A stretch of DNA of 64,000 nt from a virus (IMGVR_UViG_3300020576_005620:32001-96000), one strand, 5' to 3'; positions 5,501 through 14,537 are shown, counted from the first letter of the stretch. The notes: generated from the sequence alone by a model not told the origin. Numbers and translations are program-made.

Positions 5501-5575
5501 ACGGCAATAAGTTAAGGATAAAGACTACCGGGGGCGCACCCGGCAAAGTAGTTTCGAGTACTACATGCCGTACCA
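5501..5575 (+). tRNA. atypical tRNA-like gene with 6-nt anticodon loop (GGCGCA)
   Basis: ACGGCA/TGCCGT acceptor, D stem AGTT/GACT, CCGGG/CCCGG stem, GTAGT-TTCGAGT-ACTAC T arm, encoded CCA. Confidence 0.75.
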
Positions 5576-5579
5576 ATTT

Positions 5580-5662
5580 GGGGATGTGATCCGAGTGGTA
5601 AGGAGCTAGACTGCAAATCTTGTGTGAAAACAACGAAGGTTCGATTCCTTCCATCCTCTCCA
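5580..5662 (+). tRNA. tRNA-Cys(GCA) with long variable arm
   Basis: cloverleaf, loop CTGCAAA, U73, CCA, variable region TGTGAAAACAAC. Confidence 0.92.
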
Positions 5663-5685
5663 ATTTCATCAGTTAAGAATCCAAT

Positions 5686-5775
5686 TTTGCAAAGAAAGGG
5701 TAATGAGCGGAGCAGAAACTCTCGTTATTACATCGCCTGTTGTCTGTAACTTCATATCAAGACAGCCTTTGCAAA
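5686..5775 (+). ncRNA. unknown structured RNA, copy 1
   Basis: TTTGCAAAG/CTTTGCAAA closing stem, two internal helices; near-identical copy at 8157-8250. Confidence 0.7.
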
Positions 5776-5783
5776 CAATTTAA

Positions 5784-5874
5784 GGATAGGTGGCCGAGAG
5801 GCTTAAGGCACTAGTCTTGAAAACTAGCGACCCCCTCAAGGGGTCCGTGGGTTCAAATCCCACTCTATCCTCCA
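5784..5874 (+). tRNA. tRNA-Ser(TGA)
   Basis: cloverleaf with long variable arm, loop CTTGAAA, CCA. Confidence 0.95.
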
Positions 5875-5893
5875 AAATAATAAAAGTGAACCA

Positions 5894-6481
5894 ATGTATA
5901 ACTACGGCTTTATAGTAGACTTAACTAATTACAATTGCGAATTAGATTTAGCTACTTTTGTCTTTGATTTAGAGGGTGATTTTGATTTTCTTGAACAAGA
6001 AGGTTATGAAGAAATTGAAGCATTGAAATCAAAATCAGTTTTTGTTTCTATTAGTTTTATAGATCAGATAACTAGTGATACTGGCTTTGCGGTACGAAAT
6101 GCTTTTTTGGAAAACTCTCCCTATGTTTTTGAGTGCGATGACTCTGGTATAACATTTTTTAAAGATGAAGACATGTCTAAGGTATTAGAAAGGCATATTG
6201 AAAAATTAAAAACTCTTGAAGGTACTATTGTTATTGAAAAGGGCCAACCCAAAGTTAGAACATTTGAGAAAGGTAAGCCTATGACTTTTCATCCAGCTAA
6301 TTTCTCTGTAAAGTTTTTATTTTTTGAAAAACCTTCTGATAATTTAATAGAATTTCTAAAAGAAAGGTGTAGAGAGTATTTTTATCAGCTAGCAATACTT
6401 TTCAGAAAAACTAATAGTGATCCTACACGAATAATTGGTTTTAGGGAAGAATTTACCACAAAAACCTACAAAGATATATAG
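5894..6481 (+). CDS. hypothetical protein
   Basis: 195-aa ORF between RNA genes. Confidence 0.75.
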   Translation: MYNYGFIVDLTNYNCELDLATFVFDLEGDFDFLEQEGYEEIEALKSKSVFVSISFIDQITSDTGFAVRNAFLENSPYVFECDDSGITFFKDEDMSKVLERHIEKLKTLEGTIVIEKGQPKVRTFEKGKPMTFHPANFSVKFLFFEKPSDNLIEFLKERCREYFYQLAILFRKTNSDPTRIIGFREEFTTKTYKDI

Positions 6482-6486
6482 CTTTA

Positions 6487-6611
6487 ACTAACCCATAAGC
6501 GGCTATAGGGTTAGTAGTCCAGCCTGAGCAATGTTCTACGAGGTGTTGACGATTCACCTGGCGTCACATTGATCTAGTAAATATGGTAGAATAAACCTAG
6601 ATAATCTCAGG
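6487..6611 (+). ncRNA. unknown structured RNA (hairpin + three-way junction with two potential pseudoknots)
   Basis: ACTAACCC/GGGTTAGT; CCTGAG/CTCAGG, CAATGT/ACATTG, AGGTG/CACCT, ATCTAG/CTAGAT; no long ORF. Confidence 0.55.
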
Positions 6612-6621
6612 ATCATAACAA

Positions 6622-6752
6622 TTTAGGTAATCCCCGGTAAACGGGAGAGGAAGTTTAGTAAGAATAGGTGATTTCCTTTCGGAAGTCTGACCACTGCGCC
6701 AGCCCTGCAGCCCTTGGATAAATTACTACACCGCATAATGGGATTACTTAAA
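6622..6752 (+). ncRNA. unknown structured RNA closed by a 13-bp terminal stem
   Basis: TTTAGGTAATCCC/GGGATTACTTAAA plus internal helices. Confidence 0.5.
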
Positions 6753-6757
6753 CAAAT

Positions 6758-6833
6758 GGCGGCAAATACAAAGGGTCGAGTGAGCAGTTTTTCAGGCTGT
6801 TATTAGCGGGTTCGAGCCCCGCTGCCGCTCCCA
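6758..6833 (+). tRNA. atypical tRNA with TTC (Glu) anticodon
   Basis: GGCGGCA/TGCCGCT acceptor, GCAGT-TTTTCAG-GCTGT, GCGGG-TTCGAGC-CCCGC, CCA; has A8, G1:U72, C73. Confidence 0.75.
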
Positions 6834-6967
6834 ATTTTAGAGAAATAAACTTATGGAAAATGTAGTATACTTACTAGCACTGGGATTGTTTATGTTTGTT
6901 ATGTTTAATGCAGACAAAATTTTAGACATTATCCACGATTCGGTAAGAAAAAAGAAATAAAGCTCGT

Positions 6968-7044
6968 GGTGGTTATAGCTCAATTGGCAGAGCATATGCT
7001 TGTGGTGCATACTGTTGTGGGTTCGAGTCCCACTAATCACCCCA
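6968..7044 (+). tRNA. tRNA-His(GTG)
   Basis: cloverleaf, encoded G-1:C73, loop TTGTGGT, CCA. Confidence 0.95.
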
Positions 7045-7051
7045 AAATTTA

Positions 7052-7522
7052 GTGAATACTATGACTATAAAAGAAACTATTGTAGGCTCTCATTGCTTTA
7101 CATTTAACAAAAAAGATAACGGTGGAGAAGCTTTATCTTTAAGATCTACTTTTTTCACTAATGGTGATCCAGGTATATTTTTAAGACAGGAATTATCTTT
7201 AAATTCTTATTGTAATACAGCTACCTTCCATATAAATTTTGAAATTACACCTGATATATTAAGAAATTTAGCTGATGAGTTGGAAGAGGCGATTAAGACT
7301 ACCCTTTCTGTTCAATCTACCAACTATACACATGAAACGTTAGTAGGATCAGTTTTTAAATCATCTAAATTTTCTCAAGATTATCAAGTCTGTTTTCTAG
7401 AAGAAGGCAGTCACTATTTATTAGCTAATTGTGTTACAGGAGTAGTGCCCGAAAACTTCATATTCGCTGATTTTGAAGATCTAGTTAAAGAGTTAAAAGG
7501 AAATTGGACACCTTGTGATTAG
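7052..7522 (+). CDS. hypothetical protein
   Basis: 156-aa ORF. Confidence 0.7.
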   Translation: MNTMTIKETIVGSHCFTFNKKDNGGEALSLRSTFFTNGDPGIFLRQELSLNSYCNTATFHINFEITPDILRNLADELEEAIKTTLSVQSTNYTHETLVGSVFKSSKFSQDYQVCFLEEGSHYLLANCVTGVVPENFIFADFEDLVKELKGNWTPCD

Positions 7523-7994
7523 TATGGATATAACAGAACTTGAAAGACAAAAAGAACAACTAGAAAAACAATTAGCTGAAATCAATCAAAAGCTTCAAAC
7601 AGATCCAGTTTTTCTTGAATCTTTCTTAAGTTTAGTGGATAAACTAGGTTTTGTTAAACATACTGAGCACAGTAAAAATTCATATAAATTGTTTTCTGAA
7701 GATAGAAGTGTAGTGTGTATTTTGGAAGCCGATTTAGAGAGAGATATATACACTTTTAGCTTTACAGAGATTGAAACTTGTGGCGGTATAAAATCTTATA
7801 CATTAATTTCAAAAGAAAAGTTACTTGACTATCTTAACACACCTTTAACTTTTACTCATTACGAAATTACTGTGAAAGAGAAGTATGAAGAATGGGAACC
7901 TGAAGAAGAGTTTCAAAATACTTTAAAAAACGCATCTAATAATGATGATGAGGAAATAGAAGTCATCAAAACGGTTACTTTCTTTAAAGAGTAA
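7515..7994 (+). CDS. hypothetical protein
   Basis: 159-aa ORF with N-terminal coiled coil. Confidence 0.7.
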   Translation: MISMDITELERQKEQLEKQLAEINQKLQTDPVFLESFLSLVDKLGFVKHTEHSKNSYKLFSEDRSVVCILEADLERDIYTFSFTEIETCGGIKSYTLISKEKLLDYLNTPLTFTHYEITVKEKYEEWEPEEEFQNTLKNASNNDDEEIEVIKTVTFFKE

Positions 7995-8004
7995 CATTTA
8001 CAAT

Positions 8005-8157
8005 TTCCTATGATCTCGAAAGAGAGTGAAATGGCTCATGCTATGGGTTTACTAGCATACTAAAAACCCTGCATTTTCTACCCTACGAGAACCTTTTGCC
8101 AAAGTTGGGTACAAGCATCCGTATGCAGGTTGATCTTGTAAATTTCTCTCATAGGAA
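8005..8157 (+). ncRNA. unknown structured RNA with two potential pseudoknots
   Basis: TTCCTATGA/TCATAGGAA closing stem; TCTC-GAAA-GAGA; ATGCTA/TAGCAT; TACCC/GGGTA; TACAAG/CTTGTA. Confidence 0.55.
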
Positions 8158-8250
8158 TAATTGCAAAGAAAGGGTAATGAGCGGGATAGCAAGCTCTCGT
8201 TATTTCCAACCTGTGTCTGTAACTTCATATCAAGACACCTTTGCAGTTAT
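8157..8250 (+). ncRNA. unknown structured RNA, copy 2
   Basis: paralog of 5686-5775 with stems preserved. Confidence 0.7.
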
Positions 8251-8252
8251 CT

Positions 8253-8328
8253 GGCCTTGTAGCATAGCGGTTAGTGCGCCATCCTGTCACGGTGGAGTGC
8301 GAGGGTTCGAATCCCTTCAAGGTCGCCA
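8253..8328 (+). tRNA. tRNA-Asp(GTC)
   Basis: cloverleaf, loop CTGTCAC, G73, CCA. Confidence 0.95.
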
Positions 8329-8363: not shown

Positions 8364-8573
8364 ATGAAAGTATACTTAACTTTTTTTCATATTGATTATG
8401 AGAGCACTGTCTGCCTTTCGGTTCACTCCTCTAAAGAGGGTGCAATAAAAAGAATAGAAGAGAGCTTAGTGTCAGATGATAATGGTGACAAATATGAATT
8501 TGACTCTGAATATTGTACGTGGTATCTTAACGGATATTCATATTCAATAGAAGAAGAAGATTTGTTAGACTAG
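8364..8573 (+). CDS. small hypothetical phage protein
   Basis: 69-aa ORF, MKVY...SVHSSKEGA...YSIEE pattern. Confidence 0.7.
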   Translation: MKVYLTFFHIDYESTVCLSVHSSKEGAIKRIEESLVSDDNGDKYEFDSEYCTWYLNGYSYSIEEEDLLD

Positions 8574-8578
8574 GGGAA

Positions 8579-8858
8579 TCGAAGGTTTAAGGAGTTGCCA
8601 CTCCTTAGATGAGTTTACGTAGATCTCATACAACTACGAGCCGTGTAAGCTGGCACAAGCTGCCTTTTTGACTCAGGGTTAAGTCTAACTCTAGCGTCCG
8701 CACTCGCGTTAAAGTGATAAGTTGTTTCCTGATTTCTTGCATTAAAGGAAATTAGATCGCTCCCCTAGCGTTCAAGAAAAAAGGGTCGTTTACGTAGGGT
8801 TCTAGAACAACCTGCGTATCTTTGGGGGAATAAATAGTGGCAACTATCCCCCTTACGA
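8579..8858 (+). ncRNA. unknown ~280-nt multi-hairpin RNA
   Basis: no long ORF; many hairpins; complementary 5' and 3' hairpin loops (TGCC/GGCA). Confidence 0.55.
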
Positions 8859-8862
8859 TTTT

Positions 8863-11118: not shown

Positions 11119-12029
11119 ATGAACTCGCAGGACGCATACTAGGGGTAGTTAACAAACATTTCCTAGAATTTAACTACCCCCTAATAACTAAAAACACTAA
11201 CATACTGCCAGAAGACAAATCTACTTTATTTGTTTGTAGCGGTATGCAGGTAATACAAGATAACTTTACTGATCCGGTTTTGGAAAGGTGTTCTAGTTTA
11301 CAGTCTTGTATCAGAACAAATGACATTGATCTAGTAGGTGATGGGTCGCATCTTACCTACTTTGAAATGTTAGGAAACTTTTCCTTCCAAAACAATGACT
11401 ATGATTCCGCATGTCTAATGTGGAATAGAATCATAAGAGAGCTTCATCTTCCAGTTAGTCATATAACAGTTCATCCTACACAACAAACTCATTCTCTTCT
11501 GTGGAAGGGATTGGGATATCTTGTTGTTGAAGATGATTCTTGTGTATGGTCTAATGGAAATATAGGGGGCTATTGCTGTGAAGTCTTTTGTGATGATCTA
11601 GAAATAGGGAATCTTGTTAACCCATTAGAACACTCTGTGGATGTTGGATTTGGGTTTGAGAGACTTGTTCAAGTCCTTGAAGGCAAGGAAAGAGTTGATG
11701 AAACCTCTATTTTTGATACCTCCCTCCCACCAATATTAAGAGACCATATAAGAACACTGACTTCATTTAACAATGCAAGTGTAGAACCAGGATCTAAAGG
11801 TCCTAACAGTATTTGCAGACAATTAGTGAGAAGAATCATTCAATATGAATCTCCTAATTTACCAAGTTGGTTGAATGTTTGGATTGAAAAGGAGCAAAAA
11901 CTCCTAGAACAAAAGCAGAGTCTTTTAATTAAGTACAAAGATCAATTTGTAAACAAACCATTTGAGTACTGGTACCAAACTTATGGCTTAACTGAGGAAG
12001 AAATAACTCAGTATCTTGGCTCTATTTAG
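11119..12029 (+). CDS. alaS: minimal alanyl-tRNA synthetase-like protein (catalytic domain only; start uncertain)
   Basis: STLFVCSGMQ, QSCIRTNDIDLVGDGSHLTYFEMLGNFSF, GYCCEVF, LEIGNLV, VDVGFGFERL, DHIRT; homology runs upstream of the track start at 11244. Confidence 0.88.
12020..12029 (+). promoter_or_regulatory. CTCTATTTAG motif variant
   Basis: about 34 nt upstream of a virion-like gene. Confidence 0.45.
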
Positions 12030-12062: not shown

Positions 12063-14171
12063 ATGCCAGAACCAAATACTAGTTACGCAAATATACATAT
12101 TGATAATAATGGCAACGTTGCTATTAGTACTACTCAACCGATGACAAACTTCACGGTTGGTGCTCCTTCAGGTATTGTTCTACAGATAGATGGAACAGCC
12201 TCTTTCCGTGATTTAATAGGTGCCGGTACCCGCCTTACCGCCGCATCCAGCGGTGGTGTACTTGTACCTATTAATCTTAGCAGTGCTTCTTTAGCTGTTT
12301 CTGGTACTAACCTTGTTGTTTCAAATCTTGAAGCTTCCAGTTTTAGCACCAATCTAAAAGCAGAGATGAGAGATAACTCTTTCTCAGATCTTGCACTAAG
12401 AAATACAGTAAGTCAAGTTAACCGTGGTCCAGTTGTTATTAGAAACAATTCGGATGTTTATGATGTCTATATCAAAGCTGGTCAGTATGAGTGGTCAAAG
12501 TGGTCCATTAGTCAGAGTGCAGCTGGACGAAGACATGGCATCAAAGAAATCCACATTGAGAATTGGTTTAACTGGGCACCTCTTATGTCTTCAAGCACAG
12601 CTTGGAGAACTGCAGGAAGCAATGTAAGATACAGTGTTAATACCTACGCTATTGGTGGTATTCAGCCTTACTTTACTGATGGCTGTTCTTGTGATGTAAC
12701 TATCACAGGTGAAGGCCCACTCTTCATGTATTTGATGGCAAGAAGTGGTACAGGAAGTAGTGGTACTGTTCAAGCAGCTCTTGTGTCTGGTCCTACTGTG
12801 GACTACGATAACTGGGAGCTCTATCACCACGTTCAGAGTACTGACTCTTATGCACCTGCATTTAGTAGGATTCATCCATATCTTCCATATGGTACATACA
12901 CTGTAAGATTGACACACACCTCGAGTGGTGCTTCTTACCCAGCTGAAGCGTTCCCAATTGCTTTAGGCTTTGCTAATGGTACTCCATATGAGAAAGCAAA
13001 TACTATAGTAAAACACGCACCTACGCTTGCAGGATTCTGCAAGGAAGATGGATCTAGCTATACAAGTATTGTAGCTACAGATATGACTTCTGGTGGTTTA
13101 ACAAACACCGTTAACCACGATTCTCCTAAGGATTTTGACACAGGTGGTCCTTACTACTTTGTTGTTGGTTCACCGACTGGTCACCATGTAAACAAAATAG
13201 AATTGGAGTTCATTGTTGCTAACTCTGGCGGTGGTACGCTTAAGGTGTATTACTGGAATGGATCTGCTTTAGCAGAAGCCAGTCTCCATATGAACACCAT
13301 GGGGTCAATGAACAATGATGGTTATGTGTCATTCTACACCCCTACAGACATTGTTGCAAACACTGTTAATAGTCACACAGGATATCATTACTACTTAAGA
13401 AGTTCTACATCCATGGGTGGTGTGCAGTTCAACAATGTTTGGCTTCATTCACAGGTACCATTCTACCAAGAAGTTAAATATCTCAATCATGAGACTAATT
13501 CTGAATTGGAAATGGTAACTTGTAGATATGAGAATGGTCCTACAAGTAACGAACAGGACATGGGTGGTGGACATGATAACGAAGCTAGAACTTCTTTTGA
13601 TATCCTTGCCGATGGAGTAAGTATTGTTTCTTCACTCACAAATGGAAAGGCTCAGAAAGCACAATCTATTGTCTTTAAGCAGGAACTAAGTTTGTTTACA
13701 AACTTCCAAGTTACTGGATCTGCTGTAGCTCAGTATTCGTTGAGACATGAGATTGGAAGTGGTGGAATTGCTGTTGACTGGTACATGACATACCTTGCAC
13801 AGTCAACTCTTAATCCATTCTACTATCCTTACATGCTCCCCTCAAACATTAATGTGTTTAGCCACATTAACTGGGTTTACTCAGATAGAATAGTAACAAC
13901 CACCCTTCCAACAACTGGTGAAGTTTCTAAAGTTGGTGGAGAGGCAGTTGGTGCTTTCTTTACTTCTACTGAACATAAGTACAGACTAGGTATTTCAACC
14001 CAGTTTGCACAGGAATCAGCGTATAATTATAGAAGTGGTGATACTTGGTTTGTTCTTACTATAAACCCGTATTCCAAGATTTACTGTCATGGATCTGGAA
14101 ACACTAATGGTTACATTACTGTTCCAGCTAACCATACAATCTTTGGTAAATCTTTCTATTATTGTTATTAA
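12063..14171 (+). CDS. putative virion/tail-associated protein
   Basis: N-terminal GNVAISTTQP fibre-type repeat; Ser/Thr/Gly-rich, beta-rich. Confidence 0.6.
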   Translation: MPEPNTSYANIHIDNNGNVAISTTQPMTNFTVGAPSGIVLQIDGTASFRDLIGAGTRLTAASSGGVLVPINLSSASLAVSGTNLVVSNLEASSFSTNLKAEMRDNSFSDLALRNTVSQVNRGPVVIRNNSDVYDVYIKAGQYEWSKWSISQSAAGRRHGIKEIHIENWFNWAPLMSSSTAWRTAGSNVRYSVNTYAIGGIQPYFTDGCSCDVTITGEGPLFMYLMARSGTGSSGTVQAALVSGPTVDYDNWELYHHVQSTDSYAPAFSRIHPYLPYGTYTVRLTHTSSGASYPAEAFPIALGFANGTPYEKANTIVKHAPTLAGFCKEDGSSYTSIVATDMTSGGLTNTVNHDSPKDFDTGGPYYFVVGSPTGHHVNKIELEFIVANSGGGTLKVYYWNGSALAEASLHMNTMGSMNNDGYVSFYTPTDIVANTVNSHTGYHYYLRSSTSMGGVQFNNVWLHSQVPFYQEVKYLNHETNSELEMVTCRYENGPTSNEQDMGGGHDNEARTSFDILADGVSIVSSLTNGKAQKAQSIVFKQELSLFTNFQVTGSAVAQYSLRHEIGSGGIAVDWYMTYLAQSTLNPFYYPYMLPSNINVFSHINWVYSDRIVTTTLPTTGEVSKVGGEAVGAFFTSTEHKYRLGISTQFAQESAYNYRSGDTWFVLTINPYSKIYCHGSGNTNGYITVPANHTIFGKSFYYCY

Positions 14172-14188
14172 CAAAGACTACTAAATTT

Positions 14189-14537
14189 GGGGCTGTCAGG
14201 CTTCGATGGTGTACTAGATACCTTAGTTGCAGGGCGTGGATGTATCCTTGGCCACGTAAAAATGGATATAAAAAATAAGCGACAAATCATACGCTTTCTT
14301 GGGTTAATTACCTAAGCCGCTGAAAGATGGACGAGTTAGAGTACTCTGATGCGGACGAATTGAACTAACTAAGCTCAAAAACTTTTGTTTAAGGTTGGGA
14401 GTCGAAAATTGAATTAAACAAGACTTCAGATAGGTTTGTCCTTCCCAAAATCTGATTTTACTAAATAAGGAAAAACTCTGTAGTAGCTGACGTTGAAGGT
14501 AGATCAGAAGGGGGTTCGATTCCCCCCAGCTCCACCA
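14189..14537 (+). ncRNA. ssrA: tmRNA
   Basis: 5' GGGGCTG...TTCGA, 3' GGGGTTCGATTCCCCCCAGCTCCACCA with G3:U70; tag ORF 14281-14307 (DKSYAFLG*). Confidence 0.95.

Follow-up and report, generated by a model that had tools for sequence, protein, structure and literature searches.

A structured element of about 90 nucleotides (nt) occurs twice, each time a few nucleotides upstream of a transfer RNA (tRNA) gene, in a 64,000-nt stretch of viral DNA that we refer to as the window. The window comprises bases 32001-96000 of the single-contig virus record IMGVR_UViG_3300020576_005620 (194,459 base pairs (bp), 39% G+C, ~84% complete according to CheckV), and positions are counted from the first nucleotide of the window unless another contig is named. 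The record carries 17 tRNAs and a transfer-messenger RNA (tmRNA) according to ARAGORN, plus one more tRNA scored by Rfam only. It encodes a family-A DNA polymerase, a UvsX-like recombinase and a ribonucleotide reductase, as well as a nicotinamide/nicotinate phosphoribosyltransferase (NAPRTase-family) enzyme, a short AlaRS-like protein and a ribose-phosphate pyrophosphokinase. No close relatives were found among cultured phages or in IMG/VR, with the DNA polymerase reaching at most 28% identity in IMG/VR and ~27% among cultured phages. The genes and tRNAs surrounding both copies of the element are all on the + strand, and the two copies are arranged with their flanking tRNAs as follows, including the sites where ribonuclease P (RNase P) would be expected to cut:

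5580..5662, + strand: tRNA-Cys(GCA) with an encoded CCA, 23 nt upstream of copy A (ARAGORN, Rfam).
5686..5775, + strand: copy A; closing stem P1, 5686-5694 with 5767-5775 (9 bp); P2, 5697-5738; P3, 5739-5766; loop L3, 5746-5759.
5784..5874, + strand: tRNA-Ser(UGA), 8 nt downstream of copy A; expected RNase P cut at 5783/5784 (ARAGORN, Rfam).
8157..8250, + strand: copy B; closing stem P1, 8157-8168 with 8239-8250 (12 bp); P2, ~8172-8212; P3, 8213-8238; loop L3, 8219-8232.
8253..8328, + strand: tRNA-Asp(GUC), 2 nt downstream of copy B; expected RNase P cut at 8252/8253 (ARAGORN, Rfam).

Copies A and B share one common three-way junction, formed by the closing stem P1 together with P2 and P3. P2 is a long irregular hairpin that is preceded by two or three A residues after P1 and whose tip varies freely. 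P3 is a 6-7-bp stem that adjoins the 3′ strand of P1 without a linker and is capped by a 14-nt loop. The loop sequence, GTAACTTCATATCA (GUAACUUCAUAUCA as RNA), is the same in copy A (5746-5759) and copy B (8219-8232), and any other site in the window differs from it at 3 or more positions. Chance does not account for the repeat: across the 194-kb genome, blastn finds no significant match for either copy except the other one (E ~1e-8 per block), and a covariance model run over the same genome scores them at 107 and 98.5 bits, with the next match at 15 bits (E ~1). An earlier reading of the DNA, made by a model from the sequence only, had described a duplicated RNA with these bounds, an invariant 14-nt loop and ends lying 8 and 2 nt before a tRNA. 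All of these points hold: blastn and the covariance model pair the two copies alone in the genome, the loop match is exact, and ARAGORN and Rfam both place tRNA-Ser at 5784 and tRNA-Asp at 8253.

A third sequence came from a sister phage. Searching a large protein collection with the NAPRTase-family flanking gene returned a homologue at 92% identity, from a phage that has Logan assemblies for four sequencing runs of a single study, ERR12387315 and ERR12387321 to ERR12387323. Contig L081 of this phage shows synteny with the window, at ~81% identity in the coding DNA, and holds a single element:

L081:15311-15409: copy C, the orthologue of copy B and the sole copy in L081, 2 nt before tRNA-Asp.

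Copy C is identical in all four Logan contigs, and the known family thus numbers three distinct sequences, found in two genomes that are close relatives. The same P1-P2-P3 arrangement is obtained from all three, whether they are folded singly, in the context of their tRNAs, or by RNAalifold, which finds P1, P2 and P3 unprompted in the three-sequence alignment. When folded in context, copies A and B stay independent modules and the 14-nt loop is predicted to be 70-99% unpaired. Measured against shuffled sequence, the fold of the + strand scores z -3.4 and -2.6 for the two copies and that of the - strand scores less well (z -1.9 and -1.5), and the G·U and U·G pairs found in P1, P2 and P3 would be A·C mismatches on the opposite strand. 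Both the pairs, which work on the + strand only, and the better + strand z-scores speak for an RNA made from the strand of the tRNAs.

Covariation was measured on the alignment of copies A, B and C fitted to the model. Standard pairs occupy 94% of cells, versus 34-45% when the 3′ partner columns are slid by 1-3 positions. Double compensatory changes are found at three pairs, one in P1 (U-A to A-U) and two in P3 (U-A to C-G, G-C to A-U). In 9-19 of 500 trials, shuffled data reached the observed covariation values. The sequence-only reading had quoted a difference between the P3 arms of copy A (GTTGTCT/AGACAGC) and copy B (GTGTCT/AGACAC) as one that keeps pairing. The difference is real and consists of the loss in B of both nucleotides of the second P3 pair, a U·G pair kept in A and C, and compensatory change within the helices becomes visible once the third, orthologous copy is added.

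Substitutions are also unevenly spread. Between copies A and B there are no differences in the 56 nt of the P1 core, the 5′ block, the inner P3 stem and the loop, against 10 differences in the 29 nt of the P2 tip and the P2/P3 joiner. The 16-nt 5′ block AAAGGGTAATGAGCGG, whose RNA consensus is given as GAAAGRGUAAUGAGCGG, is invariant between A and B. Copy C has one change in this block and none in the loop, and the 3′ strand of its P2 is rewritten yet still forms a hairpin, a pattern to be set against the ~81% nucleotide identity of the flanking genes. Drawn from three sequences, the unevenness is suggestive of selection on the element’s conserved parts. A further pairing, speculative and spotted by eye, may join AUGAG of the 5′ block to UUCAU of the loop (5 bp); its positions are all invariant, so covariation cannot address it.

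The element does not behave as a gene or as a member of a described RNA class. On the + strand, an ATG in the 5′ block gives differing reading frames in the orthologues B and C owing to indels, and on the - strand an ATG in the loop starts frames of 28 codons in A, 58 in B and 7 in C, so small protein genes were rejected on both strands. Nothing in Rfam 15, including the self-cleaving ribozymes, riboswitches, YrlA, Drum, ROOL and GOLLD, overlaps either copy, even at E<=10. A tRNA, tRNA-like RNA or tmRNA (clan CL00001) was likewise set aside, with the Rfam tRNA model finding the flanking tRNAs and not the element, and relaxed ARAGORN with introns allowed makes no call on it that would indicate an intron-bearing or mitochondrial-type tRNA. 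The P3 loop, at 14 nt, is without the T-loop consensus. A Y RNA or YrlA module was dismissed as well, with no TROVE (Ro60) or RtcB gene in the genome and no YrlA match on the element. The description of the element as a phage RNA that is non-coding and belongs to no known family therefore stands, the source being a virus record and the Rfam comparison having given no match.

The presence of copy A distinguishes the two phages. In L081, tRNA-Cys and tRNA-Ser are only 6 nt apart with no element between them, and the corresponding additional DNA in the window is the following:

5661..5781 (with the bounding repeats), + strand: extra segment of 115 nt bearing copy A, with CAATTT direct repeats at 5661-5666 and 5776-5781.

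L081 is without this segment. A third CAATTT lies at 5682-5687, and the first ~20 nt of the segment resemble the 5′ flank of copy B. From its sequence, the segment looks like a segmental duplication, or like a loss in the sister phage, via short repeats; it does not look like the transposition of an inverted-repeat-bounded element. One possible explanation for the whole pattern is that the element has no RNA function of its own. It would then be a duplicated segment, or an element acting as DNA (a MITE-like, that is miniature inverted-repeat transposable element-like, inverted repeat, or a protein-binding site), and its conservation would reflect youth or gene conversion. In favour of this explanation, copy A lies in a 115-nt presence/absence segment between direct repeats, together with part of B’s 5′ flank, and P1, read as DNA, is an inverted repeat. 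The distribution of substitutions (0 in 56 nt versus 10 in 29 nt) argues against it, as do changes within helices that are compensatory or paired deletions and G·U pairs that make the helices strand-specific. Additionally, no OrfB_IS605/TnpB zinc-ribbon domain, and hence no IS200/IS605-family TnpB, is encoded in the genome. A MITE or an IS200/IS605-derived element (PATE, omega RNA) was rejected as a candidate because the segment starts ~20 nt before the inverted repeat and only two copies exist. Overall we regard the absence of an RNA function as quite improbable.

The same comparison bears on the relation between the element and its tRNAs. The sister phage has the same tRNA-Ser without the element, and the element is therefore not an obligatory leader for that tRNA; within the genome of the window it precedes only 2 of ~18 tRNAs. 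A cis-acting pre-tRNA leader could still tune the maturation, timing or level of the downstream tRNA, for example by hiding the single-stranded leader bound by the RNase P protein subunit. Such a role would agree with the position of all three copies immediately 5′ of a tRNA, and with a helix that reaches -3 relative to the cleavage site in B and C. It fits poorly with the element-free tRNA-Ser(UGA) of the sister phage, with downstream tRNAs that differ (Ser and Asp) and spacers that differ (8 versus 2 nt), and with the ~16 other genome tRNAs without the element. A leader design common to these other tRNAs was also looked for and rejected, their upstream regions being unrelated. We consider a leader function improbable.

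Our preferred interpretation, held tentatively and with slightly less than even confidence, sees in the element an autonomous module of structured RNA, ~90 nt long and restricted to one lineage, which is freed from a polycistronic tRNA/mRNA (messenger RNA) precursor by RNase P and whose loop and 5′ block bind a partner in trans. The case for autonomy comes from the sister tRNA-Ser that lacks the element and from the small fraction of tRNAs that carry it. Under this interpretation the element would be transcribed from the + strand within a long tRNA/mRNA precursor, and cleavage by RNase P at the 5′ end of the downstream tRNA (‘tRNA punctuation’) would set the 3′ end of the element 2-8 nt past P1, leaving a terminus that would amount to a blunt, exonuclease-resistant helix. 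For copy A, the other side would be set by 3′ maturation of the upstream tRNA-Cys. Release by RNase P is plausible, the ground for it being that each copy shares its strand with a genuine tRNA and ends 2-8 nt before it. The freed RNA would then work in trans, with the single-stranded loop GUAACUUCAUAUCA and the 5′ block GAAAGRGUAAUGAGCGG as its recognition surface, and the partner would more probably be a protein than an RNA. The analysis establishes the sequence, fold, strand, position and pattern of conservation of the element, from which its transcription, cleavage, stability and binding to a partner are inferred. A further possibility, which we rate as doubtful, is that the RNA acts in trans as a trap for one particular factor of the host or the phage. 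It might, for instance, serve as a decoy or sponge for a protein of tRNA processing, RNA decay or anti-phage defence, and its dose would have been doubled by duplication into a second tRNA junction.

Several points weigh against an autonomous module with a trans partner. The analysis yielded no partner protein and the phage genome holds no complementary RNA target, so the sequence-only reading’s proposal that the conserved loop binds a protein or an RNA goes unsupported beyond the loop’s invariance and its predicted single-strandedness. An antisense regulator of phage mRNA was rejected, with no site in the genome complementing the loop with fewer than 3 mismatches, and the other genomic occurrences of the loop 12-mer were discounted as lying in unrelated contexts. 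The covariation comes from three sequences in two close genomes and is suggestive, not statistically secure. A helix end 2 nt from the cut site could hinder RNase P instead of helping it, and copy A may be a segmental duplication so recent that decay has not set in.

Copy B is directly preceded by another structured region, which gives rise to a different cis-acting explanation:

8006..8156, + strand: closed structured domain of ~150 nt, with a CCTATGA...TCATAGG closing stem and a GAAA-capped hairpin.

This domain is ~92% identical to L081:15160-15310 and has no Rfam match. It joins P1 of copy B without a linker, and together the two make a 245-nt two-domain RNA before tRNA-Asp. The element could then be a protective cap with no trans role, in which P1, once RNase P has cut, would shield upstream RNA from 3′-to-5′ exonucleases, the shielded RNA being the message of the open reading frame (ORF) 7052-7994 and/or the 150-nt domain. 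A comparable case is MALAT1, whose structured 3′ end is produced by RNase P cleavage upstream of mascRNA. The geometry suits a cap, as the cleavage site follows the end of P1 by 2 nt in B and C and by 8 nt in A, and copy B directly follows a protein-coding block and the structured domain. Copy A, by contrast, follows a tRNA and not an mRNA, leaving nothing obvious to shield, and a simple hairpin would suffice for protection, so that the invariant 14-nt loop and the 16-nt 5′ block are left unexplained. A purely protective role seems unlikely to us.

Transcription signals around the copies bear on one more explanation, in which the element would be a processive antiterminator of the HK022 put type that acts in cis on RNA polymerase and allows read-through of the mosaic of tRNAs and genes. 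Like putL and putR of HK022, the element is present in two copies per phage genome and has two adjacent hairpins, and it lies inside a long co-oriented transcription unit. A scan with a sigma-70-type consensus, which may not be that of the host, found no excess of promoter-like sites and no promoter just upstream of the element, and the only two terminator-like sequences on the + strand both lie elsewhere than between an element and its tRNA. Both copies fall within 2.5 kb of one unit, and the element differs from the put RNAs in its P1 closing stem, for which they have no counterpart, and in the lack of a promoter-proximal position and of downstream terminators. We regard antitermination as very unlikely.

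Searches for further relatives of the element returned none. More distant phages, with 60-64% identity in the NAPRTase-family protein, have no element near that gene, and for the neighbouring proteins of 69 and 702 amino acids (aa) no homologues were found beyond the sister lineage. In IMG/VR, scans with exact and degenerate patterns gave only 14 chance 16-mers that were rejected by the covariance model, scans of JGI metagenomes gave only nine chance 20-mers, all at <=22 bits, and scans of GTDB genomes gave one match inside a Thermoactinomyces coding sequence. Among GenBank phages, blastn matched tRNAs only.

The tRNA region is an indel hotspot between the window and L081. Two ORFs of the window, at 5894-6481 (195 aa) and 7052-7522 (156 aa), have no L081 counterpart (regions 5875-6482 and 7052-7522). 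Just upstream of tRNA-Cys, 5501-5575 on the + strand holds a tRNA-like unit with an acceptor stem, a good T arm (GTAGT-TTCGAGT-ACTAC), a CCA end and a 6-nt ‘anticodon’ loop, which is called by relaxed ARAGORN only and not by Rfam. It is absent in L081, where a 214-aa ORF (13288-13932) occupies its place. The 195-aa, 156-aa and L081 214-aa ORFs have no Pfam or PHROG match. A non-coding stretch at 6483-6618 (+ strand) is 92.6% identical to L081:14225-14358, which runs directly into tRNA-His; in the window, an insertion of ~340 nt separates the two. Inside this insertion, absent from L081, is a degenerate tRNA at 6758-6833 (+ strand) that default ARAGORN misses, that the Rfam tRNA model scores at 35.8 bits and that relaxed ARAGORN calls as tRNA-Glu(UUC), with an encoded CCA and an odd D/anticodon region. 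Downstream of copy C, the sister tRNA-Asp starts with U instead of G at L081:15412, giving a 1-72 mismatch that is either a real variant or an assembly error. A further ORF-free stretch of ~290 nt at 8570-8860 (+ strand) leads up to tRNA-Ser(GGA) and matches nothing in Rfam; it corresponds to L081:15745-16027 and lies in a block that the two phages share at 87% identity.

Other observations concern the translation-related genes of the genome. The gene at 11244-12029 encodes a 261-aa protein whose match to class II AlaRS (Pfam tRNA-synt_2c) is confined to the N-terminal catalytic part, and 2 kb downstream of it lies the phage tmRNA at 14189-14537, with the tag DKSYAFLG. Outside the window, at G000:C1 ~191,845-191,925 on the - strand, a cloverleaf-like sequence (GCCCCGG...CCGGGGC-U-CCA, with a T arm) that is not in the ARAGORN list sits within 130 nt upstream of tRNA-Ala.

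Ever since T4, phage tRNA regions have been known to encode small stable RNAs, to which no role has yet been assigned. The element described here is a compact example that has a defined fold and a candidate recognition surface and for which the two sister phages offer a natural contrast of presence and absence, its value being limited by a family of three sequences from one lineage. If it is expressed, an uncultured large phage would be using tRNA processing to free RNAs that are not tRNAs, and the element would make a tractable bait for its partner. If the decoy or sponge possibility were true, a function would for the first time be assigned to a small RNA of phage tRNA clusters (the class of T4 RNA C and RNA D).

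Among known systems, maturation punctuated by tRNAs occurs in mitochondrial transcripts, in MALAT1-mascRNA and in the tRNA-miRNA (microRNA) units of MHV68, where RNase P or RNase Z, recruited by a tRNA or tRNA-like fold, fixes the end of the neighbouring RNA, and structure beside the cut protects the new end. The element resembles these systems by position, as read from the DNA alone, and differs in setting, as they are eukaryotic, organellar or from animal viruses. GOLLD and ROOL are phage- or prophage-associated structured RNAs that are often found beside tRNAs and are perhaps co-transcribed with them (PMC5737381). Unlike the element, they are 500-800 nt long, widespread and modelled in Rfam, and the element matches neither model.

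The closest likeness in kind is to T4, whose RNA C and RNA D are small RNAs from the phage tRNA region with roles that are unknown (PMC3014915). The products of rnaC and rnaD (species 1 and 2 stable RNAs) share with the element a small size, a structured fold and a place inside a phage tRNA cluster, on the tRNA strand and a few nucleotides from a tRNA. They differ in lying 3′ of tRNA-Arg, whereas the element lies 5′ of a tRNA, and in being longer (119 and 139 nt); their folds also differ, with rnaC ending in a canonical T arm and an acceptor-like stem that are absent from the element. When the element model R1 was run on the T4 tRNA region with filters off, the best score was 12 bits and none of the matches listed fell mainly within rnaC or rnaD. 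The element is thus a new family in both sequence and structure, and is of the same kind as RNA C and RNA D of T4, the classic small RNAs encoded in a phage tRNA cluster.

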